Source of the DNA: Alphaproteobacteria bacterium
GTDB lineage: Bacteria; Pseudomonadota; Alphaproteobacteria; JAUHZC01
Direction of reading: 5' to 3'
NCBI GenBank assembly: GCA_023898725.1
Contig: CP060236.1
Span: forward strand, 342,804-406,803
DNA: 64,000 bases
How positions within the stretch are numbered: position 1 is the first letter of the stretch; each line of letters begins with the position of its first letter. The notes under the pieces were generated by a model. The model did not search any database, was not told where the DNA came from, and saw nothing but the letters and a program-made list of their open reading frames with translations. Position numbers and translations under genes: made by a program. Positions 10,031-40,350 of this stretch are shown here, piece by piece.

Positions 10031-10104
10031 TGGAGGCCGGGACCGGAATCGAACCGACATACAAGGATTTGCAGTCCTCTGCATAACCATTCTGCCACCC
10101 GGCC
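10031..10104 (-). tRNA. tRNA-Cys (anticodon GCA)
   Basis: The reverse complement GGCCGGGTGGCAGAATGGTTATGCAGAGGACTGCAAATCCTTGTATGTCGGTTCGATTCCGGTCCCGGCCTCCA folds as a cloverleaf. Anticodon loop is CTGCAAA. Confidence 0.9.
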
Positions 10105-10233
10105 TTTGCCTTGTTATAGCGTTCTTTATCTCTTTTGGTCAAGATTCTTCTCATGATTCGGTTAGTGAATCAGTGGATATGTTTGCTCCAATTGAAAAAA
10201 ATGCTATAAGGAGAAAAAGGTCAGGAATACTCT

Positions 10234-11421
10234 ATGCATCGGATACTAAATGTTTCTGCTTTTCACGTCATTGTAACACTGCCTGTTGTTTTGTTGGGCT
10301 TACTGGTTGTCCACACGCAGTGGCTAGGCTTTCACTTGGGTTACATTGGGTACACAGTCCTTGCCTTTTATGGTTATCAAATTGCTGTGTGCGTGGGACT
10401 GCACCGCCTCTGGGCACATCAGTCGTTTAAGGCGCATGCTGCCGTTGAATGGGTTCTGGCGTGGGTCGCTGCGGGCTCCCTACAGGGTCCTATTCTCGCC
10501 TGGGCTTCTGATCATTACAAACATCACGCCTTCACAGATACGCCGAATGACCCTCACTCGCCCTTAAAATATAAATCCCGCTTGGCTGGATTCGTTTGGT
10601 CGCACGTAGGATGGATGCTCTACGAACCAACACCCAAAAAAATTGAACGCATTGCCTTGGTGAAACTCGGTCGCAACAAGCCTGTGATGTGGCAGATGAA
10701 ACACTATTGGTCTTTGGCTGTGTTCATGAATGTAATAGTCCCTAGTCTTGTAGGATTATTCATCGAGCAAACCTGGACTGGAGCCTTTACGGGGGTTGTA
10801 TTTATGGGACTGGGCCGTGTTCTGCAGCAACACGCTACGTTTACCGTCAATTCATTGTGTCATTTCTTCGGACGACGGCCGTATACCCCAGGAACTGCTC
10901 GTGACTTATGGTGGGGAGTTTTTCTGCTGTTAGGAGAGAATTGGCATAATTTTCATCACGCCTTTCCACGAGACTATCGCAATGGTCACAAATGGTATCA
11001 TGTGGATATTAACAAGTGGATTATTAATGGCTTAAGGTGCGTGGGTTTAGCATGGGAACTGGAAAAAACCCCACGGGCACGCATCACAGCAAAAACACAA
11101 ATGACACTGGATACCTTTGCAGAAAGATACGTAACGCTTCTTGGGGCATTAAAAACTGAGTGTCGCAAGATCCACACAAAAGTATATGATGGATACACAA
11201 CACTGTGCAAAACTATAGGCACGACGGAAACCCACACAAAAATTCCACGTACCTACGGGAAACTCCTTCTCAAGTCTGAAAAAGCCCTCGCGCACCTTGC
11301 GACGCTTCGGGTAAGTATGGATACTAAAAAGCTTGAAAAATCCTTACACAAGTTACAAAAACGCCTCACAAAAATTGAATTGCGCTTTCAGCGGATCTTG
11401 CAAGAACATCACGTGCAATAA
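10234..11421 (+). CDS. Membrane acyl-lipid/acyl-CoA delta-9-type fatty acid desaturase with a C-terminal extension
   Basis: Three histidine boxes: HRLWAH, HYKHHAFTD (with PHSP) and NWHNFHHAFP. About 100 extra Lys-rich, helical-looking residues at the C-terminus. Confidence 0.85.
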   Translation: MHRILNVSAFHVIVTLPVVLLGLLVVHTQWLGFHLGYIGYTVLAFYGYQIAVCVGLHRLWAHQSFKAHAAVEWVLAWVAAGSLQGPILAWASDHYKHHAFTDTPNDPHSPLKYKSRLAGFVWSHVGWMLYEPTPKKIERIALVKLGRNKPVMWQMKHYWSLAVFMNVIVPSLVGLFIEQTWTGAFTGVVFMGLGRVLQQHATFTVNSLCHFFGRRPYTPGTARDLWWGVFLLLGENWHNFHHAFPRDYRNGHKWYHVDINKWIINGLRCVGLAWELEKTPRARITAKTQMTLDTFAERYVTLLGALKTECRKIHTKVYDGYTTLCKTIGTTETHTKIPRTYGKLLLKSEKALAHLATLRVSMDTKKLEKSLHKLQKRLTKIELRFQRILQEHHVQ

Positions 11422-11564
11422 CGAGAACCTTACTAACAGCAAGGATTTTTCTAATTTTATAAAGAACAGGGACATTGTCAGGTCGTAAATTACACTCCCT
11501 TGATCACTCCATCAAGATAAAGGCTCCTCCCTATCAACCCAAGCAGACCTTAGGCTTTGATTCT

Positions 11565-12146
11565 TTAGTCCTTGTGTGTCCGCCAGTGCCATACAAACAA
11601 ACCGCTAAACCCAACCAACAAGCCTAGGCCAATAATATATGTGAACCACTTTTGAGCCAATGCCAGCCCTGCTTCAATTTCCCCAGAAAAATAATACCCA
11701 ATTGCATAGCCAGCACCACAACTCAGAACCGACCAAATCAATGCTGCTATAAGATTAATTAGACTAAAGCGCATAATAGATATACCACTAGCACCAATCA
11801 TCAACGGGCTTACCGTGCGGATACCATAGACAAAACGAAAAAAGAAAATAAACGAGGTTTTATAGCGGTGCAACATTTTAAACGCCCGATCTCCCGCTGG
11901 TTTCAAGTGAGGCCAACGCAAAAATAAGCCTGGCCCGTACTTACGTCCCACAAAAAAGAGTATTTGGTCCGCAATAAGAGACCCCAAGAAAGCAATCAAA
12001 ACAATAACAGGAAAACTCAGGTACTTTTTATAGGCTAGATACCCCGCGGTCAGAACAAAGCTTTCCCCCTCAACCAAGGAACCCAGAAAAAGAATGGCAT
12101 ACGCCACTTCAGGGCCATACGCCACAAACCGCTCTAATAAACTCAC
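11565..12146 (-). CDS. dedA: DedA-family inner membrane protein
   Basis: SLVEGESFVLTAGYLA and FFFRFVYGIRTVSPLMIGASG are typical SNARE-associated/DedA motifs. 193 aa, multi-TM. Confidence 0.8.
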   Translation of the reverse strand: MSLLERFVAYGPEVAYAILFLGSLVEGESFVLTAGYLAYKKYLSFPVIVLIAFLGSLIADQILFFVGRKYGPGLFLRWPHLKPAGDRAFKMLHRYKTSFIFFFRFVYGIRTVSPLMIGASGISIMRFSLINLIAALIWSVLSCGAGYAIGYYFSGEIEAGLALAQKWFTYIIGLGLLVGFSGLFVWHWRTHKD

Positions 12147-12157
12147 AGGAGAACCTC

Positions 12158-14020
12158 CTAACGCCTTCCAAATAATTTTTCTATATCATACTTGTGGAGT
12201 TTTACATAGGTGGGGCGCCCATGGTTACACTGCCCAGAGTAAGGAACTTCTTCCATTTGGCGCAAGAGAGCTTCCATTTCTTGTAAAGATAACCGCCTTC
12301 CGGCCCGGATACTCCCGTGGCAGGCAAAGGTACTGCATAAATCTTCGATTTTTTCTTTCAGTGCTAAAGGAGATCCATGAGCATCAATCTCATCACAAAT
12401 ATCTTTAATTAGTTGCTCTATCGATGCATCACGCAAAATACTAGGGATCTCTAGCACACGCACGTGCGTCGCATCTTCAACCCGAAAAATAAGCCCAAAA
12501 CTTTCAAGGTCTTTTTGAAGAGCTTGAATATGACCACATGCCCGTTCATCGAGCTGTACAAGAATGGGTAAAAGCAAGAGCTGACGTTGCAACCCTTCTT
12601 TCTGATGACGCATTTTCATGCGCTCATAGACAAGCCTTTCATGAGCAGCATGCTGATCTACCATAATCAAATGATCAGGGGTTGCACTGATCACATATGT
12701 ATCAAATATTTGCGCAATTGGTTTCCCAAGATACGAAACTTCCGACTGGCTGGCTGCTTCAGGCGTGTTTTGAGACTCTCGGCTGGATGGGGAACCTTCA
12801 AGCGGGCGATAGATAAATGTTTGCGCATCTCGAAGTGTTTCTGAAGAAACAGGAGATGCCGCAAACGTGTATGCTCCAGACGATGAGCGCACATTCGTGA
12901 AAGTTCGGGACTGGGGCAAAAAAGAAGATTGCATCATGGTGGTTGATGTTGGGTTTTCATCCACAGCTGAAAAAGCCCTTAACGCTTGATCCGCAACAAC
13001 CGTTGATGCCCTATGGGCCCCTTGATCCAAAGCGCCCTGAACGCCCTTAAATAATATCTTTCGCACCAAGTTACTATCACGAAACCGCACTTCCGTTTTA
13101 GCTGGGTGCACATTCACGTCGACATCTTCTGCTGGGGCACACATAAATAAAACAGCAACAGGAAAGCGATTTCGCGCAAGATAGTCTTGATACGCCACGC
13201 GCAAAACGGATGGAAGCATTTTATCTTTTACAGGTCTTTTGTTGACAAAGAGATACTGCAGGTTTCCATTTGCACGATTAAAAGTCGGTAGACCAACAAC
13301 ACCTGTCAGTTTATAACCCGGACTTTCGTGCAAGACCGAAACGGCATTCTCCTGGAACTCACTTCCTAGAACATCAAACATACGGCCAATAGAAGCTTCT
13401 TCGGGATCTGAAAGATCAGAGGCTAAATACCGACACACTGTGCGTTTATCATCGATAAACGTAAAGGACACTCCCGGGTTACACAGAGCATACTTCTTCA
13501 CCCCATCAACAATATGTTGGGTTTCTGTAACTGGTGTACGGAGAAATTTTAGGCGTGCCGGAACAGCAAAAAACAAGTCCCGCATAGTAACGACCGTTCC
13601 TACCGGCATCACCATAGGTGTAACTTCTGTCATTGCTCCGCCATCACACGTGGTTGTATACCCGGAATCACTATTGGCTGTGCGTGAAGATAGCTGAAGA
13701 CGACTCACCGCCCCCATAGATGCAAGTGCCTCTCCGCGAAAACCAAAGCTATTAACAGCAAATAAATCGGCGTTCTCAAGTTTTGACGTTGCATGGCGTT
13801 CCAAAGCAAGCCCTAGCTGATCGTGAGGAATCCCTGCACCATTATCTTTCACTTGAATAAAGGCTTGTCCACCCTGGCGAATCATTATTTCAATAGCTGT
13901 TGCCCCTGCATCAAGACTGTTTTCAATCAATTCTTTAATTGCAGAAGCAGGGCGTTCAACAACCTCACCTGCGGCAATTTGGTTGACGAGATTTGTGGGT
14001 AAACGACGAATTATAGACAT
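12158..14020 (-). CDS. mutL: DNA mismatch repair protein MutL
   Basis: N-terminal GHKL ATPase motifs IAAGEVVERPASAIKELIENSLDAGA and DNGAGI. C-terminal endonuclease motifs DQHAAHERL, ACHGSIRAG and CNHGRPT. Confidence 0.93.
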   Translation of the reverse strand: MSIIRRLPTNLVNQIAAGEVVERPASAIKELIENSLDAGATAIEIMIRQGGQAFIQVKDNGAGIPHDQLGLALERHATSKLENADLFAVNSFGFRGEALASMGAVSRLQLSSRTANSDSGYTTTCDGGAMTEVTPMVMPVGTVVTMRDLFFAVPARLKFLRTPVTETQHIVDGVKKYALCNPGVSFTFIDDKRTVCRYLASDLSDPEEASIGRMFDVLGSEFQENAVSVLHESPGYKLTGVVGLPTFNRANGNLQYLFVNKRPVKDKMLPSVLRVAYQDYLARNRFPVAVLFMCAPAEDVDVNVHPAKTEVRFRDSNLVRKILFKGVQGALDQGAHRASTVVADQALRAFSAVDENPTSTTMMQSSFLPQSRTFTNVRSSSGAYTFAASPVSSETLRDAQTFIYRPLEGSPSSRESQNTPEAASQSEVSYLGKPIAQIFDTYVISATPDHLIMVDQHAAHERLVYERMKMRHQKEGLQRQLLLLPILVQLDERACGHIQALQKDLESFGLIFRVEDATHVRVLEIPSILRDASIEQLIKDICDEIDAHGSPLALKEKIEDLCSTFACHGSIRAGRRLSLQEMEALLRQMEEVPYSGQCNHGRPTYVKLHKYDIEKLFGRR

Positions 14021-24650: not shown

Positions 24651-26084
24651 CTAAAGAATGCCCAGATAACGCCACCAGACAGAGCCTACAACCCCCCAAA
24701 CAACAATATGGGCTAAGCTCATAACGAAACCATTTTTCCACCATTCGGTTACTGTCACGTAACGTGAGCCAAAAAACGCCGCCGCACTACCGCTTCCGTA
24801 ATGGGTTAAGCACCCTGACAAACAGGAAAAAAAGGCCAAAATAAGCGCAGAGGCTACTGGTGGAAGCCCACTGGCTAAAATAACAAGCAAGAAAGTTGCA
24901 TAAAATGCACTGACATGTGCCGTAATACTTGCAAAGAAGTAGTGAATATAAAAATAGAATCCCAGAAGCGCTGCAATTGCCAATGTTTGTGGAAGAAAGG
25001 CAACGGTTATTTGCGCCTGCCCACCCAACCATTTCATCATGCCAAATTTGTCAAGATACTCAGCCATCGTAAGAAGCACAGAAAACCAGATCAAGGTATT
25101 CCAGGCCCCTTTCTCATTTAAAATATCCTCCCATTGGAGAACCCCAACAAGCAAGAGGATCGAAAGACCAAGCAGTGCTGTGGTCGTTGCATCCACACCA
25201 ATATATTCTCCCAGTATCCACAAGGTGATCAGGAAGCAAAAAATACCCAACATAATTCCTTGGGCAAAATTAAGAGAGCCCATTTCTTTCAGGCGCTGGC
25301 GTGCCTGCTCCGGAGCTTGAGGAGTATCGCGAAGATCGGGAGGATAGATAAACGCCAAAATGAGAGGAATACAGATAAGCGAAATGATCCCCGGCACAAT
25401 GGCTGCTTGAAACCAGAGCATCCAGGTAATGTCAATGCCTGCACTTTTTGCAAACTCTACCATTAGGGGATTTCCAGCCATTGCCGTCAGAAACATGGCG
25501 CTAGTCACAACATTGGCATGATACCCCACTTGTATCAAATACGCTCCAATGCGTCTGCGCGTGGAAGCGTCTGGTTGACTCTGAAAGTTTAACGCAAGTG
25601 GTTGAATAATGGGATATGTAATGCCACCGCCGCGTGCTGTGTTAGATGGGATGACCGGCGCAAGAAAAAATTCTGTGAGCACAACACCATATCCCAAACC
25701 AAGGTAGTTTTTCCCAAGAAGAGCAATAAATAGATAGGCAAGGCGATCACCTAAGGTAGATTTGATAAACGCACGGGCGATAAGAAACGCAGAAACAGTG
25801 AGCCATACCGTTGGTGATGAAAACTTCGAAAGCGCCTGATCCATGCTCAGAACGTCCGCCGTTACAGCAACCACTAAGCCGATAAGAGCCGTTGCACCCA
25901 TTGGCAAGGGAGATGTTACAATACCTACAATTGTTGAGACAAAAATTGTAAAAAGACGCCACGTTTGGGGGGTCAGCCCTCCTGGAATAGGAACATTCCA
26001 CAGGATGAAACCCACAATAAGAACCCACACAAAGGGAACGAGCTTAACCCCCGACCATTGGCGGACACGTGGATGGCTTGACAT
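24651..26084 (-). CDS. DASS-family anion:cation symporter (2-oxoglutarate/malate- or dicarboxylate-translocator-like)
   Basis: About 13 TM segments. The N-terminal WRLFTIFVSTIVGIVTSPLPMGATALIGL pattern is typical of SLC13/DASS transporters. The start was set at the ATG at 26084 with AGGAA upstream; the ORF track has a GTG at 26120. Confidence 0.75.
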   Translation of the reverse strand: MSSHPRVRQWSGVKLVPFVWVLIVGFILWNVPIPGGLTPQTWRLFTIFVSTIVGIVTSPLPMGATALIGLVVAVTADVLSMDQALSKFSSPTVWLTVSAFLIARAFIKSTLGDRLAYLFIALLGKNYLGLGYGVVLTEFFLAPVIPSNTARGGGITYPIIQPLALNFQSQPDASTRRRIGAYLIQVGYHANVVTSAMFLTAMAGNPLMVEFAKSAGIDITWMLWFQAAIVPGIISLICIPLILAFIYPPDLRDTPQAPEQARQRLKEMGSLNFAQGIMLGIFCFLITLWILGEYIGVDATTTALLGLSILLLVGVLQWEDILNEKGAWNTLIWFSVLLTMAEYLDKFGMMKWLGGQAQITVAFLPQTLAIAALLGFYFYIHYFFASITAHVSAFYATFLLVILASGLPPVASALILAFFSCLSGCLTHYGSGSAAAFFGSRYVTVTEWWKNGFVMSLAHIVVWGVVGSVWWRYLGIL

Positions 26085-26579
26085 AGCGGGATTCCTAAAA
26101 ATTATGCGAAAGTTCTCCACATCCTACACAATAGATATTTTTCTGACTACCTATTTTTTTTCTGAAATAATAACTCTATTGAAGAGTAGGTTTTGACAAA
26201 TCTATCGCATTTCTCCCTTTCTTGATCCAGAAAAATCCCCCCATAAGTGATAATTTTTTCATCACCATTACTCATGTGAATTAGGAAGTTTTTTTGTATC
26301 AAAGTTGATTGACGTGTCCAGAAGATGTGTTTAAATTAGAAAGTGTTAGTTCCTGTAAGCCCTGTTTTTAAAGGGTTTTCCAGATGGTTGGTGGTATTAA
26401 TAAGGTGGGGCTTCTTTGTAACTTTTTGTTGCAAAGATCACTACTTAGGTGTGCATAGTCCGTTATTTTTGCGCGCTCCGCACACCCCTCTGAATTTCAT
26501 GATACGGGGTCATTGTGATTACGTATTTTCATTATTTGGCAAAACGCCTTAAACATAAAATTAAAGGGTATTACGTACG

Positions 26580-30060: not shown

Positions 30061-30603
30061 ATGGCAGAAAGCACCCAGCATATTCTCGATCGCGTACGTC
30101 GGCCACGTGTTCACATCACGTATGACGTTGAGATCGGTGATGCAATTCAGCTGAAAGAGCTTCCTTTTGTGATGGGCATATTAGCTGACCTTAGTGGCGT
30201 GCCAGCGGAGAAACCTCCACGTATCGCTGATCGGAAGTTCGTCGAGATTGATCTTGAAAACTTCGATTCTGTCTTTGCTTCATATAAACCCCGCCTTCAA
30301 TTTGTTGTTGACAACAAACTTCCTGGAGATTCCGAGCGCATAAATATCGAATTGGAGCTTCGGTGCTTGGATGACTTTAATCCCTTAAGAGTTATTCGGC
30401 AGATTCCTGAAATGAAAGCTCTCCACGACTCACGTACACTGTTGAATGATCTCATTGGAAAACTTGATGGAAACGAGGTTCTTGAGGGAATGCTTGGTCA
30501 AATTATTGAAGACAAAGCTCTGCGGGATGGCATTCTTGCTGAGATTGAGAAAATTGCACCCGCACCCGCACCTGAAGGCGATGCACCAAAAAGCAAAGCT
30601 TAA
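30061..30603 (+). CDS. tssB: Type VI secretion system contractile sheath small subunit TssB (VipA/ImpB)
   Basis: RPRVHITYDVEIGDAIQLKELPFVMGILADLSG...DRKFVEIDLENFD...DDFNP closely parallels canonical TssB (for example the P. aeruginosa TssB1 pattern). Strong AAGGAG SD 8 nt upstream. Confidence 0.9.
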   Translation: MAESTQHILDRVRRPRVHITYDVEIGDAIQLKELPFVMGILADLSGVPAEKPPRIADRKFVEIDLENFDSVFASYKPRLQFVVDNKLPGDSERINIELELRCLDDFNPLRVIRQIPEMKALHDSRTLLNDLIGKLDGNEVLEGMLGQIIEDKALRDGILAEIEKIAPAPAPEGDAPKSKA

Positions 30604-30624
30604 GGATAACTAGGAGATTTTGAA

Positions 30625-32073
30625 ATGGCGGACGTAGAGAATAAAATTACTTTAGAAGATATCCTTGTAAAAGGACGCTTGGCGAAAGATGAAGACAAGC
30701 GCCCAGCAGGACTTGAGCAGCTTCGTGAGTTAATTTCACAAATAAACAACACAGAGGACAATCAAATCAAGCATGTTGGCCCCTTTATGTCACACCGCAT
30801 TCAGCAAATTGATACCGCGCTTAGTGAACAACTAGATGTCATTATTCATGATCCCATCTTTCAGAAACTAGAAGGATCATGGCGTGGGTTACATTACCTT
30901 GTCAATAAAAGTCATACGAGCTCTACCCTCAAACTTCGGTTAATGAATATCTCCAAGCCAGAGCTTCTGCAAGATCTTGAAAAGGCGGTTGAGTTCGATC
31001 AAAGTCAGCTATTCAAAAAAGTCTACGAAGAGGAGTACGGAACCTTTGGTGGTGCGCCCTATTCATGTCTTGTAGGTGATTATGAGTTTGGTAGTCATCC
31101 CCTTGATATGGCACTCATACGCAAAATAGCACAGGTAGCTTCGGCCGCGCACACACCTTTTATATCTGGTGCAGCACCATCACTTTTCAATCTTGAAAGT
31201 TTTTCTGATCTTGGTGTCCCACGGGATCTTGCACGCACCTTTGAGAGCACCGAGCTTCTGAAATGGCGATCCTTTCGGGAAAGTGAAGATTCTCGATACG
31301 TTGCTCTGACTTTACCGCATGTGCTAACACGTCTGCCCTACGGTCCCGATACAAACCCTGTTGAAGACCTTAATTATACCGAAAAAGTTGAAGGAACGGA
31401 TAACAGTAAGTTCTGCTGGGGAAATGCTTCATATGTCCTTGGGGAGCGCATTACAAATGCCGCTTTCCTTTACAACTGGACAACTGCCATACGCGGGGTT
31501 GAAGGGGGGGGGCTCGTAGAGGACTTGCCGACCTATACATTCAAAACCACGGATGGTGATGTGGCACTGAAATGTCCCACAGAAGTTGCCATTACCGACC
31601 GCCGTGAGAAAGAACTGTCTGATCTTGGATTTATATCACTATGTCACTGCAAGGGTTCGGACTATGCGGCGTTTTTCGGTGGCCAAACAGCCCAACGCCC
31701 CAAAAAGTTCAGCACCGCAGATGCAAATGCTAATGCACAATTATCGGCACGCTTAACATACATGCTGGCTGCATCACGATTCGCCCACTACATCAAGGCA
31801 ATCATTCGGGATAAAATCGGTAGCTTTCTGTCAAAGGATGACGTCGCAAACTATCTGAATAAGTGGATTGCAAACTACGTTTTGCTCTCTGATGAGGCAA
31901 CACAAAGCACAAAAGCACGCTTTCCTCTTCGCGAAGCACGTATCGATGTGTTTGACATTCCAGGAAAACCGGGCTCATACCGGGCAACCGTTTTCTTAAG
32001 GCCGCATTTTCAGTTGGAAGAGCTTACAGCGTCGATTCGTCTGGTTGCAACTCTTCCTGCTCCTGCCGCGTAA
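30625..32073 (+). CDS. tssC: Type VI secretion system contractile sheath large subunit TssC (VipB/ImpC)
   Basis: 482 aa. [39 protein letters not shown] and [16 protein letters not shown] are typical TssC blocks. Follows tssB by 21 nt, with a TAGGAG SD. Confidence 0.9.
31504..31512 (+). repeat. G9 homopolymer inside tssC (encodes Gly-Gly-Gly)
   Basis: Direct read: gaaGGGGGGGGGctc. In-frame as GAA GGG GGG GGG CTC (VEGGGLVE). Confidence 0.95.
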
Positions 32074-32107
32074 AAACCCTTAAAGTACATCACGAAAGGA
32101 ATAAGCC

Positions 32108-32674
32108 ATGCCACTCGATTATGCAGCAGAAACAACCGCCGCCTCAACGATGAATGAGCGTAACCCTGTTACGAGCCAACATTCAAATTATTCACAACGC
32201 ACACAAACCCCTGAGTGGATTATTCGTGTAGGAGAAAACCTTGTGAGCTCATACATTGAAGGATTCACAGAACACACAGAGTGCTTTAGCTGGGGATTCA
32301 AACTTTCAAAGCCTACAAACCCCTCTTCCACAGGCCCCTTGTATTCATCTGCTGTGGTAACCATTAGTGATATTCAGGTTGTGATCTCAAACACGGACTC
32401 ATCCACAACACTGGAATACCGTATGATGATTGGTGAAGCACTATCATCCATTTCTTTGAAGCGTATTGCTAATATTAATGGTGTTAATGTGGTTGCTTTG
32501 GATATGGAGTTTACAAATTGCTTTACGCAATCGATCGAACCATATGGTGATATGCTAAAAATGACGTTTAAGTGCACGCATTACAAAAAAACAGCATTCC
32601 GCTTTGATCAAAATGGGGACGCAAAGGGTCAAACAGAGGTTTCCTTCTGTTTCGAAACCGGAGTGGCGAAATAA
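32108..32674 (+). CDS. hcp: Divergent Hcp (TssD)-like tube protein with a polar N-terminal extension
   Basis: Position immediately after tssC. By-eye alignment to Hcp1: EWIIRVGENLVSS..TEHTECFSWGFKLSKP vs DMFIKIGDVKGES..HAEEIDVLAWSWGMSQS, and a C-terminal DMLKMTFKCTHYKKTAFRFDQNGDAKGQTEVSF vs ENVTLNFAQVQVDYQPQ..DG. AGGAA SD upstream. Confidence 0.55.
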   Translation: MPLDYAAETTAASTMNERNPVTSQHSNYSQRTQTPEWIIRVGENLVSSYIEGFTEHTECFSWGFKLSKPTNPSSTGPLYSSAVVTISDIQVVISNTDSSTTLEYRMMIGEALSSISLKRIANINGVNVVALDMEFTNCFTQSIEPYGDMLKMTFKCTHYKKTAFRFDQNGDAKGQTEVSFCFETGVAK

Positions 32675-34315: not shown

Positions 34316-36466
34316 TTATTTGGATACAAGTGTCCATGATCCGTCCCACCCCTCTAAAGGAGGCTTCTTGATAAACACTTCACACCTTTCAATAAATTCT
34401 TCGATGATTGCTTGCTGTGTTTCTGATAGGTTTTGGAGCCCTTGAACGGTTTTTATAGCCTGTTTGAAGTTCAAATTAAGGTAGAAATCAAAAGCCCTAT
34501 TGAACCCCGTCACATACGCCATCATATTCTTATCGGGAACCCCTAGATTATGATCAGCCTGATGGCCAACCAGTTCATAGGTATGCACGCCCTTTGTCCT
34601 GCCTTTGACGACAATCACATCAACACTCCTGCACACAAACTCATCTTTGACGAGAGCATAAAGAGACTCACTGATAAGAATGTGTGTGCGATAAAATTTG
34701 TTTGCACCCTCAAGGCGGGCAGCAAGGTTTACATTATCTCCCATAACAGTGTAATTCATGCGATCAGAAGACCCTATGTTTCCAACAACAACCTCACCGT
34801 GGTGGAGACCAAAACGTGTTTTAAGAACCGGTTTGTTTGCCTTTTCCCACTGGGCGTTATAGTCACGCAGCGCATTAAAACAAGCTAGGGTTGCTCTGCA
34901 AGCATTTTTGCCTTGGGTCTTATCATCATCAGGCGCACCCCAAAAAGCCATAATAGCATCACCAATGTACTTATCGATGAGTCCCTCGTGACGCATAATA
35001 ATTTGGGATAATCCTTCAAAATAGACAGAAATATGCTTCATGAGATCTTCGGGGGAAAGCCCTTCAGATACCGTTGAGAACCCCTCAATATCAGTAAAAA
35101 GAAGAGTGAGTGGTTTTCTTTCACCCCCGATTTCTATTTCTTTTTCTGTTCCCACAAGTTTGCGTACAAGTTGTGAGGGCATATATTTTGTAAAAATACG
35201 CAAACTATGACGTGTATTCTGGAGCGTTCGCGCTAACGTTCCCACTTCGCTGATCTTTGATGTTATTTTTTCACGATCTGTGAGATCAAATTTTCCAATT
35301 TGTTCCGCGTGCGCTGTGAGATCTTGAATGGGATAAGCAATTCGTCGCGCTAACAAAATAATCTGTAAGCACGCTATAAACAAAATAAAAACATAAAGGC
35401 TATAATTGTGGTTTTCTATTTGTGCTTGTGAATAAACATACTCTTCGTAATTTGTAACACTGACAATTATCCATTCAAGATTTTCCACATCAAACATACG
35501 CAACACATTAACAAGGTATTTTTTTTCTTGGATAGTGATAAAAAACGTATTTTCTTTGCTCTGTGCAAATGTATCCATAGCTAAGCGCAAATGGCCACTG
35601 CTCAGTTGATTGATATGGATCAGCCCCTGCGCTTCGCTGTGGGTGGAATTATTCAGAATCTCAGATTGAGCAACAATCTTGTTTTCAGCATTCAAAATGC
35701 AAACAAACGAATCCGGGGAAATCTTTCTTTCGCGCAGTTCACGAGAGAGACTGGTGATGTCAAAATCAACACCAATTACTGCAGGAACACCTGAGTCTTG
35801 CCTACGAAGAGGAATTGATACAGTAACCACAGGCTTCGCAATCGAACCAAAAACATAGGCATCAATGATTGATAGGCGCCTGTTTGTAACAGCCTCCTTG
35901 AACCAGGGGCGTTGAGTCGGATCATATCGGGTGCGTGCGATATATTCTTTTTCAACCACGGTGCGGGCACTGTCCGTATAAAACCATGTTTCTCCAAGAA
36001 GTGGCGCGGAGATGATCCGATACCGAAATCGTACATTATCGGGAATACGGGTTTGCTCATCAAACACAAGGCTGTCTTGGGGAGAGGTCCTGCTGATTTG
36101 AAAAAATGCTTTATCTGGATACCCAACATATAGGCTCCAAATATCCTGATTCTGATCCATCAGAAAGCTTAAGTATTGGGCCTGTTGATCCTCGATACTC
36201 CCAATGAGAGGAGAAACAAGAACGCGGGTGGTTGTTTCAGCAACCTTGCGTGTCGTTTCTAACTTCTGCAAAACCAGGGATTCAATGCTTTCATTGTATT
36301 TTTGAATGTTATTTTTTACAAAGGTTTCTTCGCGTGAGCGCACACGCATATTGGTAAAATACCCAAGAACAAGGAGCGTGATAACTAAAAGAGAGATAAC
36401 CTGAAAGAGAACATAAAGCTCAAGAGTGAACTGATTAAATAACTTTTTGTATCGACGCGTAATCAT
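34316..36466 (-). CDS. Membrane sensor class III adenylate/guanylate cyclase (TM - dCache-like periplasmic domain - TM - HAMP - cyclase)
   Basis: Two TM segments flank a periplasmic region of about 300 aa. A HAMP-like linker follows. Cyclase motifs are LTLLFTDIEGFSTVSE, IGDAIMAFWGAP and GLHHGEVVVGNIGS..RMNYTVMGDNVNLAARLEG. Confidence 0.85.
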   Translation of the reverse strand: MITRRYKKLFNQFTLELYVLFQVISLLVITLLVLGYFTNMRVRSREETFVKNNIQKYNESIESLVLQKLETTRKVAETTTRVLVSPLIGSIEDQQAQYLSFLMDQNQDIWSLYVGYPDKAFFQISRTSPQDSLVFDEQTRIPDNVRFRYRIISAPLLGETWFYTDSARTVVEKEYIARTRYDPTQRPWFKEAVTNRRLSIIDAYVFGSIAKPVVTVSIPLRRQDSGVPAVIGVDFDITSLSRELRERKISPDSFVCILNAENKIVAQSEILNNSTHSEAQGLIHINQLSSGHLRLAMDTFAQSKENTFFITIQEKKYLVNVLRMFDVENLEWIIVSVTNYEEYVYSQAQIENHNYSLYVFILFIACLQIILLARRIAYPIQDLTAHAEQIGKFDLTDREKITSKISEVGTLARTLQNTRHSLRIFTKYMPSQLVRKLVGTEKEIEIGGERKPLTLLFTDIEGFSTVSEGLSPEDLMKHISVYFEGLSQIIMRHEGLIDKYIGDAIMAFWGAPDDDKTQGKNACRATLACFNALRDYNAQWEKANKPVLKTRFGLHHGEVVVGNIGSSDRMNYTVMGDNVNLAARLEGANKFYRTHILISESLYALVKDEFVCRSVDVIVVKGRTKGVHTYELVGHQADHNLGVPDKNMMAYVTGFNRAFDFYLNLNFKQAIKTVQGLQNLSETQQAIIEEFIERCEVFIKKPPLEGWDGSWTLVSK

Positions 36467-36482
36467 AGATATACATCCACAT

Positions 36483-37535
36483 TTACCTGTAGTGTTTCTT
36501 GGTTACGCGTGCAAACGCATCATAAATATCAGGAAGCTCAATGTTCATTTTTTCCACAATGGAATCACGGATACACACAATAAACTGCTCTGTTCGAACG
36601 ATTGGGATATCCTTAGCGGTTTTTCCCCCAATCACAATTTGCTGTGCTGCAAGACCCGCTGATGACCCTTGCTCGTAAGGAGATGTGGCAATCGCAAGAC
36701 CGCCTCCCTCCTCAACAAAGAACGCATTAACGCCAATTGCTGGAATTGTGGCATTTTGCATCGTCCACTCAAGAACCTCTTTTGGTGACATGAACTCCTT
36801 GTCATTTGGATTCCTACGAATAGAGCGATAGTTTGAAATAGTAATGAAGTCCAAGGTCTTATTGGCCTCAAGAACGGCCTTTTTCCACTCATCGAATGTT
36901 CCCACAAGTTTGGAATCTTCAAGCTTCACACGTCCCCACTCAGAAAATTGACGCATGTATTTATCATCATTTTGAACAGTAGGAGAATTATCACTAATGT
37001 GAGCTGTGCGAATCTGCACATTCTCCGCAAGACCCCGCTGTCGGGCAAGCAAGTAAAATGTATCCCGCAATCCCCCCAACGGGAGTCTTTCCAAAATACC
37101 TGTTACATTCTTTGCTTTGTCGTAACCATACGTTTCTTGAGAAGCATTTACACCGGAAAAAATAACGCTAATATTGGGATCATTAATATAGTATTGGCCA
37201 ACAAGACGCTGCGCATCATCATCGACACAAATAATCACTTGCGGACGAATAGCACCGATTAATCGTCGCGTAATCAAGCCAGCATTGCGAAGGTATGTAG
37301 GCCAAGTATGCCTCTTTGTGTCCATATAATGATAGCGAACATTGTAGCGTTTTTCATTCGCAAAAATGTTTTTTAGGCCACTATTTACATCACGCACCCA
37401 ACTATAGTCTGTTTGATAGCTGTGCACCACAAGCACTTCTTTGCGTCCAGAATTATGGATAATAAAAAATGTAAACGCAAAAAGAAGAAGAAGTGAAGGT
37501 ATGATGTAATCAAAACGAATTTTCGATGTGAACAT
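36483..37535 (-). CDS. Membrane-anchored periplasmic substrate-binding protein (ABC_sub_bind / COG2984-like)
   Basis: N-terminal TM segment IIPSLLLLFAFTFFII, then KEVLVVHSYQTDYSWVRDVNSGL, typical of the 'ABC transporter substrate-binding' PBP family. No ABC permease or ATPase genes nearby. Confidence 0.6.
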   Translation of the reverse strand: MFTSKIRFDYIIPSLLLLFAFTFFIIHNSGRKEVLVVHSYQTDYSWVRDVNSGLKNIFANEKRYNVRYHYMDTKRHTWPTYLRNAGLITRRLIGAIRPQVIICVDDDAQRLVGQYYINDPNISVIFSGVNASQETYGYDKAKNVTGILERLPLGGLRDTFYLLARQRGLAENVQIRTAHISDNSPTVQNDDKYMRQFSEWGRVKLEDSKLVGTFDEWKKAVLEANKTLDFITISNYRSIRRNPNDKEFMSPKEVLEWTMQNATIPAIGVNAFFVEEGGGLAIATSPYEQGSSAGLAAQQIVIGGKTAKDIPIVRTEQFIVCIRDSIVEKMNIELPDIYDAFARVTKKHYR

Positions 37536-37557
37536 GTTTTGTAATCCTACGTAGATA

Positions 37558-39381
37558 CTAATTAAACATAAGGCCTAGGCTCTTCCAAAAAGGAAGAGAT
37601 AGGTATATTGCCGCAATACGTCCTATATTCATAAGCGCATTAAATAGAAGGAAAGAACTCTCTTTATACGGAAGCGCTTTTGAAAATGATTCTGTAAACT
37701 TTGTGTAGAAAGGAGATTGATACGGAAACCACCAAATATCAGCTGACATCAGCAAAACAAAACCAAGAACCCACAAACTCAAACCGAATGATTCCGAAAC
37801 AGGAACCATGATAGCCGAAAGAAGAGCAATTGCCGGTCCAATAGGAAGAATAAGCCGCACGACAACCATTATTCCCACAAGCACCATAATAAGCTTCCCA
37901 AGATCCTGCTCAGAAATAAAGGCCTTAAGCAGGGGAAGAATGTAAGAGAGAAACATATTATCCACACCAAGGAACTGCATACATTTATTGATGCCGATGA
38001 TCGTTGCCAGAAATACGAGAAAAGACCAATCCGTATCTTTTTGCCATTTCTCTGTACCAATAAGATTCATGGAGAGAATAGCAAAAAGAAGGAAGAGACT
38101 GACCCACTCAATAGGGATACGATGATACTGGGTAGTAAAAAGCGATATAACAAAAAAGATCACACATCCCAAAGCCATTACTTCTTGTGATGACATAGAA
38201 GCACGGGCTTTGATCTGAAGATCAATCATTGGCTTTGACACGTTAATTTTTGTGCGCGTCGCAAAGAAAATTGAGGAGGTTACAAGGTAGAAAACACTCA
38301 GTACCCCCCCTACGACACCCGCACTATAAAACCAACCAATGGTTATAATGTTTTGCTGCTCTTGAAGAGGCAGCAAACCAAATACAACAAAGTTCATAAC
38401 GGATCCTGTGAAAAACACACTACTCAGTATTGTTATGCCAAAAAAGATAGATGCACTAATTTTTGTACTCAAAGTCGTTCCATGAGGAATTCCCAGAATG
38501 TCAAGAGTCTCCTCAACCATCGGAGCTCCCACTTTTGCACGGTTGACTATTGAAGGAATAGCAGGCGTCATGAGGCCCCCAAGAAAAAAAAGCGCAACGT
38601 TATAAAATCCAGATCCTGATGGCAGATACCGAATCAGATAAAGCAAAATTCGTTGGATTAATCCTGATTGGATCAAAAGAAGCCCAATTCCCCACAGCGA
38701 CATCACAAGAATGAAAGGACTTGAAGAAAATCCCGCCAGCACCTCAGCGGGAGGAACAAGCCCCAGAATAAGTGATGCCGCAATAATGATGAGTCCTGGT
38801 ATTGACTCGTGGAAAGTACCAAATACCCAAAAAATAACGCCTGACGACAAAATACTTATGAACAAACGTGTTTCACTAGCAATACCATCATCAAGAAGAG
38901 CATGAATAAAAACAGGCACAATAAAGGCAAATACCCAGCTAATAAGGGCGGAAATTTTTGTTCCCTCATCAACAACAGGCACTGTTTCAATTACTGATTT
39001 TGTCTGCGTAAACGATGAAAATAGAATACTTGAGATATCTTCGTTGTGAGCTTTGATTTTATCAAGAGCACTCACAGGAATGCGAATAATCGTTGATTCC
39101 TCTTTTGCAAGCGCATCTGAACCAAAAAATCGGGATTTGAAATAAGACTCTTCCCCAAAAAATGTTCCCTTATCACATAGCTCCTCTTTGCCATCAATTT
39201 TTATACTGCCTGAGCAGACAAAGTAAATCGCATCCGCCTCTTGTTTCGCTAAGTATACTTTTTTCCCTTTTGCAACAGAAATGACCTCAAGTAAGGGTAT
39301 AATTCGCGCCTTTACCATTGCGGGAAGATCTTTAAATAGTCGATGACTTTTAACAACGTGCAGAATTTCGTTCATATACAT
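37558..39381 (-). CDS. Cyclic-nucleotide-binding domain fused to an SLC13/ArsB-NhaD-type anion permease
   Basis: N-terminal cNMP-binding-like fold of about 125 aa (LFKDLP...GKKVYLAKQEADAIYFVCSGSIKI...GTFFGEESYF...IIRIP), followed by about 12 TM segments with permease-like repeats. Confidence 0.7.
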   Translation of the reverse strand: MYMNEILHVVKSHRLFKDLPAMVKARIIPLLEVISVAKGKKVYLAKQEADAIYFVCSGSIKIDGKEELCDKGTFFGEESYFKSRFFGSDALAKEESTIIRIPVSALDKIKAHNEDISSILFSSFTQTKSVIETVPVVDEGTKISALISWVFAFIVPVFIHALLDDGIASETRLFISILSSGVIFWVFGTFHESIPGLIIIAASLILGLVPPAEVLAGFSSSPFILVMSLWGIGLLLIQSGLIQRILLYLIRYLPSGSGFYNVALFFLGGLMTPAIPSIVNRAKVGAPMVEETLDILGIPHGTTLSTKISASIFFGITILSSVFFTGSVMNFVVFGLLPLQEQQNIITIGWFYSAGVVGGVLSVFYLVTSSIFFATRTKINVSKPMIDLQIKARASMSSQEVMALGCVIFFVISLFTTQYHRIPIEWVSLFLLFAILSMNLIGTEKWQKDTDWSFLVFLATIIGINKCMQFLGVDNMFLSYILPLLKAFISEQDLGKLIMVLVGIMVVVRLILPIGPAIALLSAIMVPVSESFGLSLWVLGFVLLMSADIWWFPYQSPFYTKFTESFSKALPYKESSFLLFNALMNIGRIAAIYLSLPFWKSLGLMFN

Positions 39382-39489: not shown

Positions 39490-40350
39490 ATGTATATGCA
39501 CAATGAAAACCCTCATGCGGCTGAAAATCTTGCTGAGATTATAGCAAAATATAGCCTTCTCCTTATTGATTCGTGGGGCGTTTTGCAAAATGGTGATGAC
39601 ATATTACCGCCTGGTAAAATGCTTGTGGATTACATCCAAAACTACAGCGCAAACGTGGTTGTTCTGACGAACTCTCCTGAAAGAAACAGCCGTGTCCGCA
39701 CAAATATTCTTACACTTGGTCTGGACATCTCTCCCGATATTGCTGTTATTTCAGCAGGAGAGATTGCCTATCAAGACATGTACGCACATAAAAAGTACCG
39801 GGGTAAAAAGGCTTACATCATTGATTATGATAACTATAGCCCCTATTTTGAGGGATTACCCCTGGTGTTTGTTAACCGCATTGAGGAAGCTGAACTTTTA
39901 ATTGTACGCAGTATAAATCCTGATATTTCCAAAGTGAGCTCATACGCCGACACCATCCAGAAAGCCTGTGCGCAGGGAATTCCCATTGTGATTATAAACC
40001 CCGATGAAGCTGTTCAAAGTGGCACACAAACATTCGCGCGGCCGGGATCTATACTTCCATACTGCACCACAAATACAGATATTCTTTATTATGGGAAACC
40101 CTGGCCTCGCATATATTCACACATTGAAGTCATAAATCCTACAATAGAGCCATCAAAAATACTGGTTATTGGAGATTCACTTTATACGGATGTGTTAGGT
40201 GCAAATCTGAATGGGTACGACTCTCTTCACCTAATCCCTATCAATCATAGTGGTCATGATGTAAACACAGGAATTTTTGACTATATGTCCGAAGACATAC
40301 GGAACAATCGATCCACATTATTAACCCCCACATATACCGTACGTTACTGA
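39490..40350 (+). CDS. HAD-superfamily hydrolase, subfamily IIA-like
   Basis: LLLIDSWGVLQNG (DxxG motif I), VVLTNSP (motif II) and a C-terminal VIGDSLYTDVLGA (motif IV). Confidence 0.7.
   Translation: MYMHNENPHAAENLAEIIAKYSLLLIDSWGVLQNGDDILPPGKMLVDYIQNYSANVVVLTNSPERNSRVRTNILTLGLDISPDIAVISAGEIAYQDMYAHKKYRGKKAYIIDYDNYSPYFEGLPLVFVNRIEEAELLIVRSINPDISKVSSYADTIQKACAQGIPIVIINPDEAVQSGTQTFARPGSILPYCTTNTDILYYGKPWPRIYSHIEVINPTIEPSKILVIGDSLYTDVLGANLNGYDSLHLIPINHSGHDVNTGIFDYMSEDIRNNRSTLLTPTYTVRY

Follow-up and report, generated by a model that had tools for sequence, protein, structure and literature searches.

A DASS-fold permease and a membrane-anchored binding protein as a candidate binding-protein-dependent transporter encoded beside a predicted adenylate cyclase

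The window, a 64,000-nucleotide stretch of alphaproteobacterial DNA, contains three minus-strand open reading frames separated by gaps of 22 and 16 nt. An earlier reading made from the letters alone (the sequence-only reading) had described them as three tightly spaced genes for a transporter, a binding protein and a cyclase, and the coordinates and spacing agree with that description. The genes and features concerned, with the evidence used for each, are as follows.

34316..36466, minus strand: predicted membrane adenylate cyclase, 716 aa (Pfam, hydropathy, alignment to CyaB 3R5G)
36483..37535, minus strand: binding protein (SBP), 350 aa (Pfam, AlphaFold2, Foldseek, pairing statistics)
37558..39381, minus strand: permease, 607 aa (Pfam, AlphaFold2, Foldseek)
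39106..39156, minus strand: non-canonical 'phosphate-binding cassette' (PBC), aa 76-92 of the permease (column counts, HMMER, MAFFT)
39490..40350, plus strand: HAD-IIA hydrolase of the TIGR01459 family, divergent from the other genes (NCBIfam)

The domains expected of the three proteins (cNMP_binding, Na_sulph_symp/CitMHS, ABC_sub_bind, dCache_1, HAMP and Guanylate_cyc) were all found by Pfam. The genes around the trio encode PDH E2, the HAD-IIA hydrolase, an APC antiporter and an MFS transporter. The SBP had been said to lack an ABC partner, and Pfam and NCBIfam searches of the window indeed located no ABC permease or ATPase gene near the trio; at 123 non-redundant loci, too, no ABC partner was a recurrent operon-like neighbour. 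Across several phyla the gene set turns up in genomic surroundings that are unrelated to one another, and the arrangement is therefore not due to chance.

The permease is laid out as a cytoplasmic N-terminal domain homologous to cyclic-nucleotide-binding (CNB) domains (approximately aa 1-125), a disordered linker (aa 124-137) and a membrane domain with a predicted DASS fold (approximately aa 140-607). Over aa 150-556 it matches Na_sulph_symp (45 bits, cut-off 27) and CitMHS (32.5 bits) in Pfam. It scores 69 bits against the NCBIfam 'dass' model (TIGR00785), which is under the cut-off of 198.6; by comparison, the canonical DASS gene at 24651-26120 of the window reaches 488 bits with Na_sulph_symp (PF00939). 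Foldseek matched the AlphaFold2 model of the permease (pLDDT 81.5) to AtDiT2.1, NaCT and VcINDY with target-normalised TM values of 0.79-0.83, to Pho90 with 0.74 at best, and also to SiaQM. The matched membrane fold consists of scaffold and transport domains with two helical hairpins, and the model points to a DASS elevator fold common to the permease, the DASS/SLC13 carriers (VcINDY, NaCT, AtDiT) and Pho90. Sequence identity to these carriers is 12-17%, and the earlier label 'SLC13-like' is best limited to the modelled fold, the sequence passing the Pfam cut-off but not the NCBIfam one.

Two permease motifs that are invariant in the family, T-P-x-I-P-S (aa 270-275) and L-P-I-G (aa 510-513), are each flanked by paired helices and are taken to be the tips of the two helical hairpins. 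In DASS carriers the hairpin tips bear Ser-Asn-Thr motifs, which form the Na+ and substrate site, whereas the presumed tips of the permease family carry the two motifs above. Yeast Pho90 is a DASS-fold carrier with an N-terminal cytoplasmic regulatory SPX domain, and the permease would resemble it in carrying a regulatory domain at this position. To our knowledge, DASS carriers have no binding-protein partner and none is known to need one, whereas the permease described here has an SBP partner gene.

The SBP had been described as a binding protein of the ABC_sub_bind family held by a single transmembrane segment (TM), and this proved correct. Hydropathy places one N-terminal TM, a signal-anchor helix, at aa 8-26, and ABC_sub_bind (PF04392) matches aa 252-336 only (32 bits, cut-off 25.9). 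Positive-inside analysis gave an N>C topology for 55 of 70 homologues, and the SBP is predicted to face outward. Its gene has an AGGA ribosome-binding site 9 nt ahead of the ATG. In the AlphaFold2 model (pLDDT 95.7) the two-lobe type I periplasmic-binding-protein fold is kept whole, and its best structural matches are solved PF04392 binding proteins, including CD0873, which Foldseek aligned over the full length (E 1.9e-14 to 1.4e-13 for 6HNI, 3LFT and 3LKV). Conserved residues at strand ends (HSY, DTK, DDDAQ, GVN, ER, SNYR and SPYEQG) may line the inter-lobe cleft, which is the ligand site of type I binding proteins. The ligand of the solved PF04392 members is L-Trp, L-Tyr or L-Phe (PMC10443332), and the partners of PF04392 (COG2984) proteins are an ABC permease and an ATPase (COG4120/COG1101; PMC5615194). 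The SBP family described here thus shares its fold with TrpX, CD0873 and 3LKV but adjoins a DASS-fold permease in place of ABC partner genes.

Among 72 genome loci, the gene immediately after that of the permease is the SBP gene wherever the flanking DNA sufficed, the sole full-length exception being the most divergent homologue (L067). The reciprocal test was made on metagenome loci that were found with an SBP profile and had at least 600 nt of upstream sequence, and a permease lay upstream of the SBP in 64 of 64. The two genes overlap by 4 nt at L004, L081 and L082, and the pairing is also present in a distant subfamily (L163). Because the reciprocal test was without exception and the genes can overlap, the SBP is tied to the permease and not to the cyclase. 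Pairwise identities of the permease and the SBP are correlated over 94 loci (r = 0.82), partly through shared descent; in the 27-locus subset that includes a cyclase, the correlation is 0.90 between permease and SBP and 0.72 and 0.69 between either protein and the cyclase. The invariant unit is permease plus SBP, with the cyclase optional. The pair falls into about 500 clusters at 50% identity, and its cultured carriers include Massilia, Duganella, Rhodoferax, Limnothrix and Legionella.

A 2025 paper names TRAP, TTT and, newly, TAXI-GltS as the only secondary transporters known to depend on an SBP, and the membrane subunits of TRAP have a DASS-like fold (PMC12344293). The pair resembles TRAP (DctPQM), TTT (TctABC) and TAXI-GltS in that a secondary permease, here predicted to be of the elevator type, is coupled to a dedicated SBP both genetically and in translation. 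It differs from all three in that its SBP has the type I PF04392 fold, rather than being a DctP, TAXI or TctC protein, and is anchored by a TM, and in that its putative permease represents a distinct family of predicted DASS fold with an N-terminal CNB-like domain and no Q-type subunit. A TRAP transporter proper was ruled out by the PF04392 SBP and the lack of a Q subunit; weak DctM matches occur in some permease relatives. A literature search found no published description of the permease-SBP pair.

The reading favoured here, with a probability of about 0.5, is that the pair is a candidate for an undescribed SBP-dependent elevator-type secondary transporter that has a cytoplasmic regulatory domain and is co-transcribed with a periplasm-sensing adenylate cyclase. 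Its core would be a transport unit of two genes, an elevator-type DASS-fold permease and a dedicated, membrane-anchored SBP of the PF04392 fold. Like its counterparts in TRAP, TTT and TAXI-GltS, the SBP would capture a ligand in the periplasm and deliver this to the permease, and the CNB-homology domain, facing the cytoplasm, would tune transport allosterically. In the window genome this unit would share a transcript with a dCache-HAMP class IIIb adenylate cyclase. The cAMP made by the cyclase would signal what its periplasmic sensor detects, whether that same ligand, the loaded SBP or the state of the transporter. Both the hand-over of ligand from SBP to permease and the co-sensing by the cyclase are steps that we infer, and the obligate linkage of the pair would also fit an SBP that serves as a regulatory or structural subunit.

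The third protein is predicted to be a class IIIb adenylate cyclase. It consists of TM1 (aa 17-35), an extracytoplasmic dCache_1 domain (aa 167-337), TM2 (aa 355-373), HAMP (aa 371-423), the catalytic domain (Guanylate_cyc, aa 452-632) and a C-terminal helical tail of about 80 aa; the domains were located by Pfam and the TMs by hydropathy. Class III cyclases use two metal-binding Asp residues, a transition-state Asn and Arg, and a Lys and Thr that specify the substrate. All six (D, D, K, T, N, R) are present, and FTDIEGF, DKYIGD and YTVMGDNVNLAARLE are conserved in the alignment to Pseudomonas aeruginosa CyaB (3R5G), the best solved relative (E 3.6e-34). The catalytic residues are conserved in both proteins; however, CyaB carries a membrane MASE2 module, whereas the cyclase described here has the extracytoplasmic dCache domain, HAMP and the helical tail. 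The proposal of a membrane class III cyclase with a large extracytoplasmic sensor was thus well founded.

A cyclase is the commonest transducer partner of the pair, and the full trio was found in Alpha- and Betaproteobacteria and in cyanobacteria, in keeping with the earlier expectation that the genes would co-occur elsewhere. As a cyclase lies near the pair in about a third of loci, its role in the window genome is extrapolated from gene order. The transducers encoded next to the pair are interchangeable: they comprise dCache-HAMP cyclases, ABC_sub_bind-cyclases, ABC_sub_bind-kinases and a dCache-SpoIIE-HATPase_c_2 protein, and the dCache-HAMP sensors of a cyclase and a SpoIIE protein are 34% identical over 420 aa.

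Such repeated recruitment of different periplasm-sensing transducers is also what would be seen if the SBP, the permease or both reported ligand occupancy to the adjacent membrane transducer, net uptake being secondary. The transducers at L062, L081 and L117, whose own sensor is a paralogous ABC_sub_bind domain, and the resemblance of the SBP model to LuxP, TorT and XylFII in Foldseek are consistent with this alternative. Carriers or SBPs are likewise encoded beside a periplasm-sensing transducer in the co-sensing pairs DctA-DctB, DcuB/DctA-DcuS, LuxP-LuxQ and TorT-TorS, although the output of those systems is phosphotransfer, whereas for the putative co-sensor described here it is predicted to be cAMP. 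However, at about two thirds of loci no transducer gene lies close to the pair, and the free SBP stays with the permease even where a transducer with an SBP domain exists. The membrane domain of the permease and its presumed hairpin-tip motifs are also strongly conserved, as expected of an active carrier, and a chiefly sensory role for the pair is considered unlikely.

The N-terminal domain of the permease had been claimed to have a cNMP-binding fold, and this was confirmed by a Pfam match at aa 35-110 (PF00027, 39.3 bits, cut-off 27.5) and by Foldseek matches of the AlphaFold2 model to the EAG1 CNBHD and the MloK1 CNBD. The CNB fold is thus fused to a membrane transport protein, as it is in channels. 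In a canonical cassette an Arg neutralises the cyclic phosphate (CAP R82, PKA RI-alpha R209) and a Glu at the cassette start contacts the ribose 2'-OH. The cassette of the window permease reads G-E-E-S-Y-F-K-S-R-F-F-G-S-D-A-L-A, with F86 at the canonical Arg position. Pocket columns were counted over 145 family domains, and at this position 124 have Tyr, 9 His, 5 Phe and 2 Arg. In an HMMER profile alignment to PKG CNB domains, the Tyr of the family falls on the canonical Arg; the cassette was also aligned with CAP by MAFFT. The Gly-Glu at the cassette start (G76-E77 in the window) is largely retained (Gly in 139/145, Glu in 98/145), and the extra Glu of G-E-E is nearly invariant (140/145).

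As the pocket is altered in this way, the ligand of the CNB-like domain is, we infer, probably neither cAMP nor cGMP. MloK1 and SthK retain the cassette Arg, whereas it is mostly absent in the permease family, and the EAG CNBHD is not known to bind cNMP. In kinetoplastid PKA regulatory subunits, loss of the Arg together with gain of a Glu abolished the cAMP response, and the ligands are nucleosides (PMC10959531).

These substitutions bear directly on the sequence-only reading, which had proposed a self-contained cNMP loop, with the periplasmic sensor or the SBP activating the cyclase and cAMP binding the CNB domain to gate transport directly. The trio and its domains are real: a CNB fold above the Pfam threshold is fused to the permease, a cyclase that appears catalytically complete is encoded in the same operon, the trio recurs across several phyla and no transducer accompanies the pair more often than a cyclase. 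Distant permease relatives also have canonical PBCs (GEIALLTGQRRTA and GEMALLTHDARRSA), so cNMP control of such permeases plausibly exists or existed. However, the Arg is missing from 143 of the 145 domains, the extra Glu is the kind of change that accompanied loss of the cAMP response in the kinetoplastid proteins, and CNB-bearing permeases can also have a kinase or a PP2C-type phosphatase as their neighbour, or lack a transducer altogether. Nor is a CNB domain associated with a cyclase neighbour, which was present for 17/45 CNB-bearing and 6/13 CNB-less permeases (Fisher p = 0.75). Given the pocket, this lack of association, the varied transducers and the tie between SBP and permease, a cNMP loop is one possible layer of the system rather than its core logic, and direct gating by cAMP is rated as quite improbable.

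It is less probable still that the SBP is a ligandless structural or assembly subunit, like the TRAP Q subunit or a scaffold. It is conserved more strongly than is usual for a binding protein (mean column identity 47% across phyla), is permanently anchored in the membrane and is only remotely related in sequence to the PF04392 proteins that bind ligands (E 6.5e-4), all of which would fit such a role, but the complete two-lobe fold is kept and the conserved strand-end residues appear to face the cleft.

The SBP-dependent transport reading can be extended, more tentatively and with some doubt, to a transporter class that ranges from Alphaproteobacteria to cyanobacteria, Nitrospirota and Leptospiraceae, whose CNB domain would have been repurposed for a ligand other than a cyclic nucleotide and which would have been wired repeatedly to periplasm-sensing cyclases, kinases and phosphatases. 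If this were so, uptake and second-messenger output would answer the same external ligand. Further SBP-dependent classes are wanted to test whether the elevator mechanism permits SBP docking (PMC12344293), and the permease-SBP pair is a ready candidate for one. CNB-fold domains on a single carrier family, canonical in few members and without the Arg in most, offer a natural series for studying a change of ligand. The gene order also links a carrier physically, and repeatedly, to predicted cAMP synthesis. In the window organism, an alphaproteobacterium with a small genome, it suggests one route by which the environment may feed into cAMP signalling.

The HAD-IIA hydrolase gene is a recurrent neighbour of these genes within the alphaproteobacterial clade. 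In the window its product scores 110 bits against the NCBIfam model (cut-off 103.75) and has D-S-W, not D-x-D, as motif I. Homologues are encoded either divergently or between the SBP and the cyclase at L006, L008, L011, L041, L046, L085, L090, L109, L122 and L160.

The operon occupies positions 34316-39381 and comprises three genes, for a permease, an anchored substrate-binding-type protein (SBP) and a cyclase:

39381..37558, minus strand: permease gene, 607 aa, with Pfam cNMP_binding at aa 35-110 and Na_sulph_symp/CitMHS at aa 150-556
37535..36483, minus strand: SBP gene, 350 aa, with a Pfam ABC_sub_bind match limited to aa 252-336
36466..34316, minus strand: cyclase gene, 716 aa, with Pfam dCache_1, HAMP and Guanylate_cyc

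The open reading frames and the gaps between them (22 and 16 nt) were reproduced, and every domain called in the sequence-only reading was recovered by Pfam, so that its observation is confirmed. Its interpretation, a self-contained circuit in which the product of the cyclase gates the permease directly, is partly supported. An AGGA ribosome-binding site lies ahead of the SBP gene, and the operon is flanked by genes for PDH E2, a divergent HAD-IIA hydrolase, an APC antiporter and an MFS pump. Neither the promoter scan nor the terminator scan rose above shuffled sequence; an Rfam search returned four tRNAs only, none of them inside or immediately upstream of the operon, and no paralogues of the three genes were found in the rest of the window. 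The surroundings look like ordinary chromosome (~44% GC) and include housekeeping genes as well as a gene for the type VI secretion sheath.

The linkage between permease and SBP was examined across genomes. A first protein search returned 13 permease relatives, the contexts of which already showed the pattern. A scan of GTDB species genomes seeded with an alignment yielded 72 loci (a single-sequence scan gave no relatives) from Alpha-, Beta- and Gammaproteobacteria, cyanobacteria, Magnetococcales, Desulfuromonadaceae, Leptospiraceae and Verrucomicrobia. At every locus with the flank present, the SBP gene lay immediately 3' of the permease gene, with one full-length exception, the most divergent homologue (L067; the prefix L denotes loci carrying permease or SBP homologues). 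The reciprocal test, a metagenome scan with an SBP profile, gave 79 loci, and a permease gene was upstream of the SBP gene in every one of the 64 with 600 nt or more of upstream sequence. In L004, L081 and L082 the two gene calls share 4 nt. Pairwise identities of permease and SBP were correlated across 94 loci (r = 0.82); in the 27-locus subset with a cyclase this value was 0.90, compared with 0.72 and 0.69 for the permease or the SBP against the cyclase. The permease has 514 matches at E <= 1e-30 (HMMER, 1.84 billion cluster representatives), and the SBP family has more than 687.

Genes of the module were also seen duplicated in tandem: L113 and L136 carry two permease genes, L154 carries two SBP genes, and L157 has two of each. 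Recurrent neighbours of the pair include a ~1050-aa WD40/caspase (Peptidase_C14) protein (L036, L097, L132, L138, L112 and, divergently, L142), a secretin-TPR protein with a pentapeptide-repeat protein upstream of the pair in 6-7 other loci, and an AMP-binding enzyme, which was downstream in five of six loci.

The cyclase is a less constant partner. Its catalytic domain is closest, among solved structures, to Pseudomonas aeruginosa CyaB (3R5G, E 3.6e-34), and it retains the metal-binding Asp pair (FTDIEGF, DKYIGD), the Lys and Thr that specify the substrate and, within YTVMGDNVNLAARLE, the Asn and Arg; the protein is a predicted class IIIb adenylate cyclase. With two hydropathy-predicted helices on either side of a ~320-aa segment, the proposed membrane class III cyclase with an extracytoplasmic sensor was borne out. 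Of ~75 genome loci screened, 28 have a cyclase-type gene no more than a few kb away. Such a gene also appears in 8 of the 25 metagenome loci that have sufficient flank, and in an operon-like position in ~30 of 123 non-redundant loci; it is placed downstream, upstream or divergently. Unrelated neighbours adjoin the pair in two thirds of loci. The expectation that the trio would be conserved across genomes thus held in that it recurs in several phyla, but the cyclase is present in about a third of loci and the constant part is permease plus SBP. The third gene took the following forms:

dCache-HAMP-cyclase: Alpha- and Betaproteobacteria, cyanobacteria
ABC_sub_bind-cyclase: Leptospiraceae, L117
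ABC_sub_bind-histidine kinase: one Nitrospirota genome
dCache-SpoIIE-HATPase_c_2: Magnetococcales (L014, L043, L048)

The Magnetococcales SpoIIE protein and a betaproteobacterial cyclase share 34% identity over 420 aa in their dCache-HAMP sensors; the sensor thus stays with the pair, and the output is swapped. With such partners beside it, the pair might itself be mainly a signalling 'transceptor', a reading that we consider unlikely. In L117, the ABC_sub_bind-cyclase-TPR gene is immediately followed by a different CNB-bearing transporter (10092-13400), a 1102-aa MFS/TLC-like protein with HEAT repeats and a strong cNMP_binding match (67 bits).

The cyclic-nucleotide-binding (CNB)-like domain at the permease N-terminus bears on whether cAMP gates the carrier directly. 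The fold itself stands, being matched by Pfam cNMP_binding and, structurally, by the EAG1 CNB-homology domain and the MloK1 CNBD, but the phosphate-neutralising Arg is replaced (F86 in the window protein). Cassette residues were counted by hmmalign columns against the family profile in 145 members; apparently canonical cassettes from a regular-expression search were false, as those matches lay in other domains. The family cassette, F-G-E-E-A-A-x-x-x-x-x-Y-L-[STA]-[DTS]-A-x-A, is equal in length to that of PKA. The Arg position holds Tyr in 124 members, His in 9, Phe in 5 (including the window's) and Arg in 2, and the third cassette position is Glu in 140. In an independent HMMER alignment, the family's Tyr falls on the Arg of the PKG CNB domain. 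Kinetoplastid PKA regulatory subunits that have lost this Arg and gained a Glu do not respond to cAMP and bind nucleosides, and a cyclic-nucleotide response was regained when the Arg was put back (PMC10959531). Judged by these residues, the pocket of the window's subfamily is derived.

The CNB-like domain was present in 47 of 52 permeases of the metagenome set and absent from some alphaproteobacterial, Legionella and Verrucomicrobiales permeases, with no upstream room for a missed exon. Its presence showed no association with a cyclase neighbour (17 of 45 CNB-bearing and 6 of 13 CNB-less permeases; Fisher p = 0.75). Two distant permease relatives have canonical cassettes (GEIALLTGQRRTA and GEMALLTHDARRSA), one of them adjoining an ABC_sub_bind gene, which makes it plausible that cyclic nucleotides control this type of carrier in those relatives. 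For the window's permease, the substituted Arg position and the lack of association with cyclases make direct gating by cAMP distinctly improbable.

L163 (1107-9890) contains two more pairs, of a distant subfamily: a 1380-aa CstA-CNB-permease fusion with a canonical R-T-A cassette adjoining an ABC_sub_bind gene and, on the opposite strand, a 790-aa permease with a non-canonical CNB plus ABC_sub_bind. In two permease homologues an extra sensor domain precedes the CNB-like domain: P0156 has a GAF domain and P0174 a four-helix bundle of the 4HB_MCP type.

The permease was modelled with AlphaFold2 (pLDDT 81.5) from 13 sequences, a number limited by a third, alignment-seeded homologue search that gave only 6 proteins (word prefilter). 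The model resembles the DASS transporters AtDiT2.1, NaCT and VcINDY (target-normalised TM 0.79-0.83, 12-17% identity), with ArsB and TRAP SiaQM ranked lower. The 'SLC13-like' label is thus upheld by the modelled fold, but the match to NCBIfam 'dass' (69 bits) is under the cut-off of 198.6. An internal contrast is provided 11 kb from the operon:

24651-26120, minus strand: canonical DASS transporter, Pfam Na_sulph_symp 488 bits

The permease scores 45 bits on the same family and is, by sequence, only a distant DASS relative. The invariant motifs T-P-x-I-P-S and L-P-I-G of its family are located between paired helices and are taken to be hairpin tips, where DASS carriers have Ser-Asn-Thr motifs instead.

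The SBP has one N-terminal hydrophobic helix by hydropathy, and the Pfam and NCBIfam searches of its window neighbours found no ABC permease or ATPase gene, in agreement with an anchored binding protein lacking ABC partners. Of 70 homologues, 55 have more Lys and Arg on the N-terminal flank of this helix and 3 have more on the C-terminal flank, which places the domain on a signal anchor, facing the periplasm. Its AlphaFold2 model (70 homologues, pLDDT 95.7) is closest to CD0873, 3LFT and 3LKV, all solved PF04392 proteins, and sugar-binding proteins, LuxP, TorT and XylFII come next; the sequence relation to the PF04392 structures is remote (E 6.5e-4). Conservation is unusually high (mean column identity 47%), and the invariant motifs HSY, DTK, DDDAQ, GVN, ER, SNYR and SPYEQG, at strand ends, would line the inter-lobe cleft of the model. 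A purely structural SBP-like protein that binds no ligand is very improbable.

The best-supported reading of these observations is that the pair is an as yet undescribed kind of SBP-dependent secondary transporter, co-transcribed in this genome with a periplasm-sensing adenylate cyclase; the ligand of the permease's cytoplasmic regulatory domain is probably something other than a cyclic nucleotide. Gene linkage, fold and topology together suggest that the transported ligand would pass from SBP to permease and that the cyclase would co-sense. In the literature searched, TRAP, TTT and, since 2025, TAXI-GltS are named as the only SBP-dependent secondary systems, all elevator-type (PMC12344293). 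No earlier description of a PF04392/COG2984 pair, a CNB-DASS fusion or an SBP-dependent DASS system was found in the open-access literature. The more interesting result is the obligate pair, in which a CNB-fold domain has apparently been repurposed and which is linked to signalling enzymes in a modular way.

Aromatic amino acids are the ligands of solved PF04392 proteins (PMC10443332), but they were not adopted as the substrate because the relation is remote and the ligand residues could not be mapped. Phosphate-related genes are operon-like neighbours of the pair in ~15% of non-redundant loci, a raw share uncorrected for background:

HAD-IIA hydrolases, beside the pair: alphaproteobacterial clade including the window
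Alkaline phosphatase: two loci (L045/L075)
PF04185 phosphoesterase: two loci (L092/L093)
Metallophos: two loci (L081/L118)
PAP2: one locus (L029)
Tandem PstS-like PBP_like_2 and NMT1_3 protein: four loci (L017/L031/L120/L137)

A phosphate or phosphoester substrate is a lead from these neighbours, not a finding. The window's own representative is:

39490-40350, plus strand: HAD-IIA hydrolase (TIGR01459), motif I D-S-W-G

This motif lacks the second Asp, the general acid/base of HAD phosphatases; motifs II-IV are apparently intact. Across the alphaproteobacterial clade the gene is again found next to the module, at either of two positions.

Elsewhere in the window, a 723-aa ORF (46575-48746, minus strand) matched no Pfam family at E <= 1e-5. 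The type VI secretion gene lies within 30061-32674:

30625-32073, plus strand: VipB, type VI secretion sheath

The small plus-strand ORFs on either side of it (30061-30603 and 32108-32674) may encode VipA and an Hcp-like protein.
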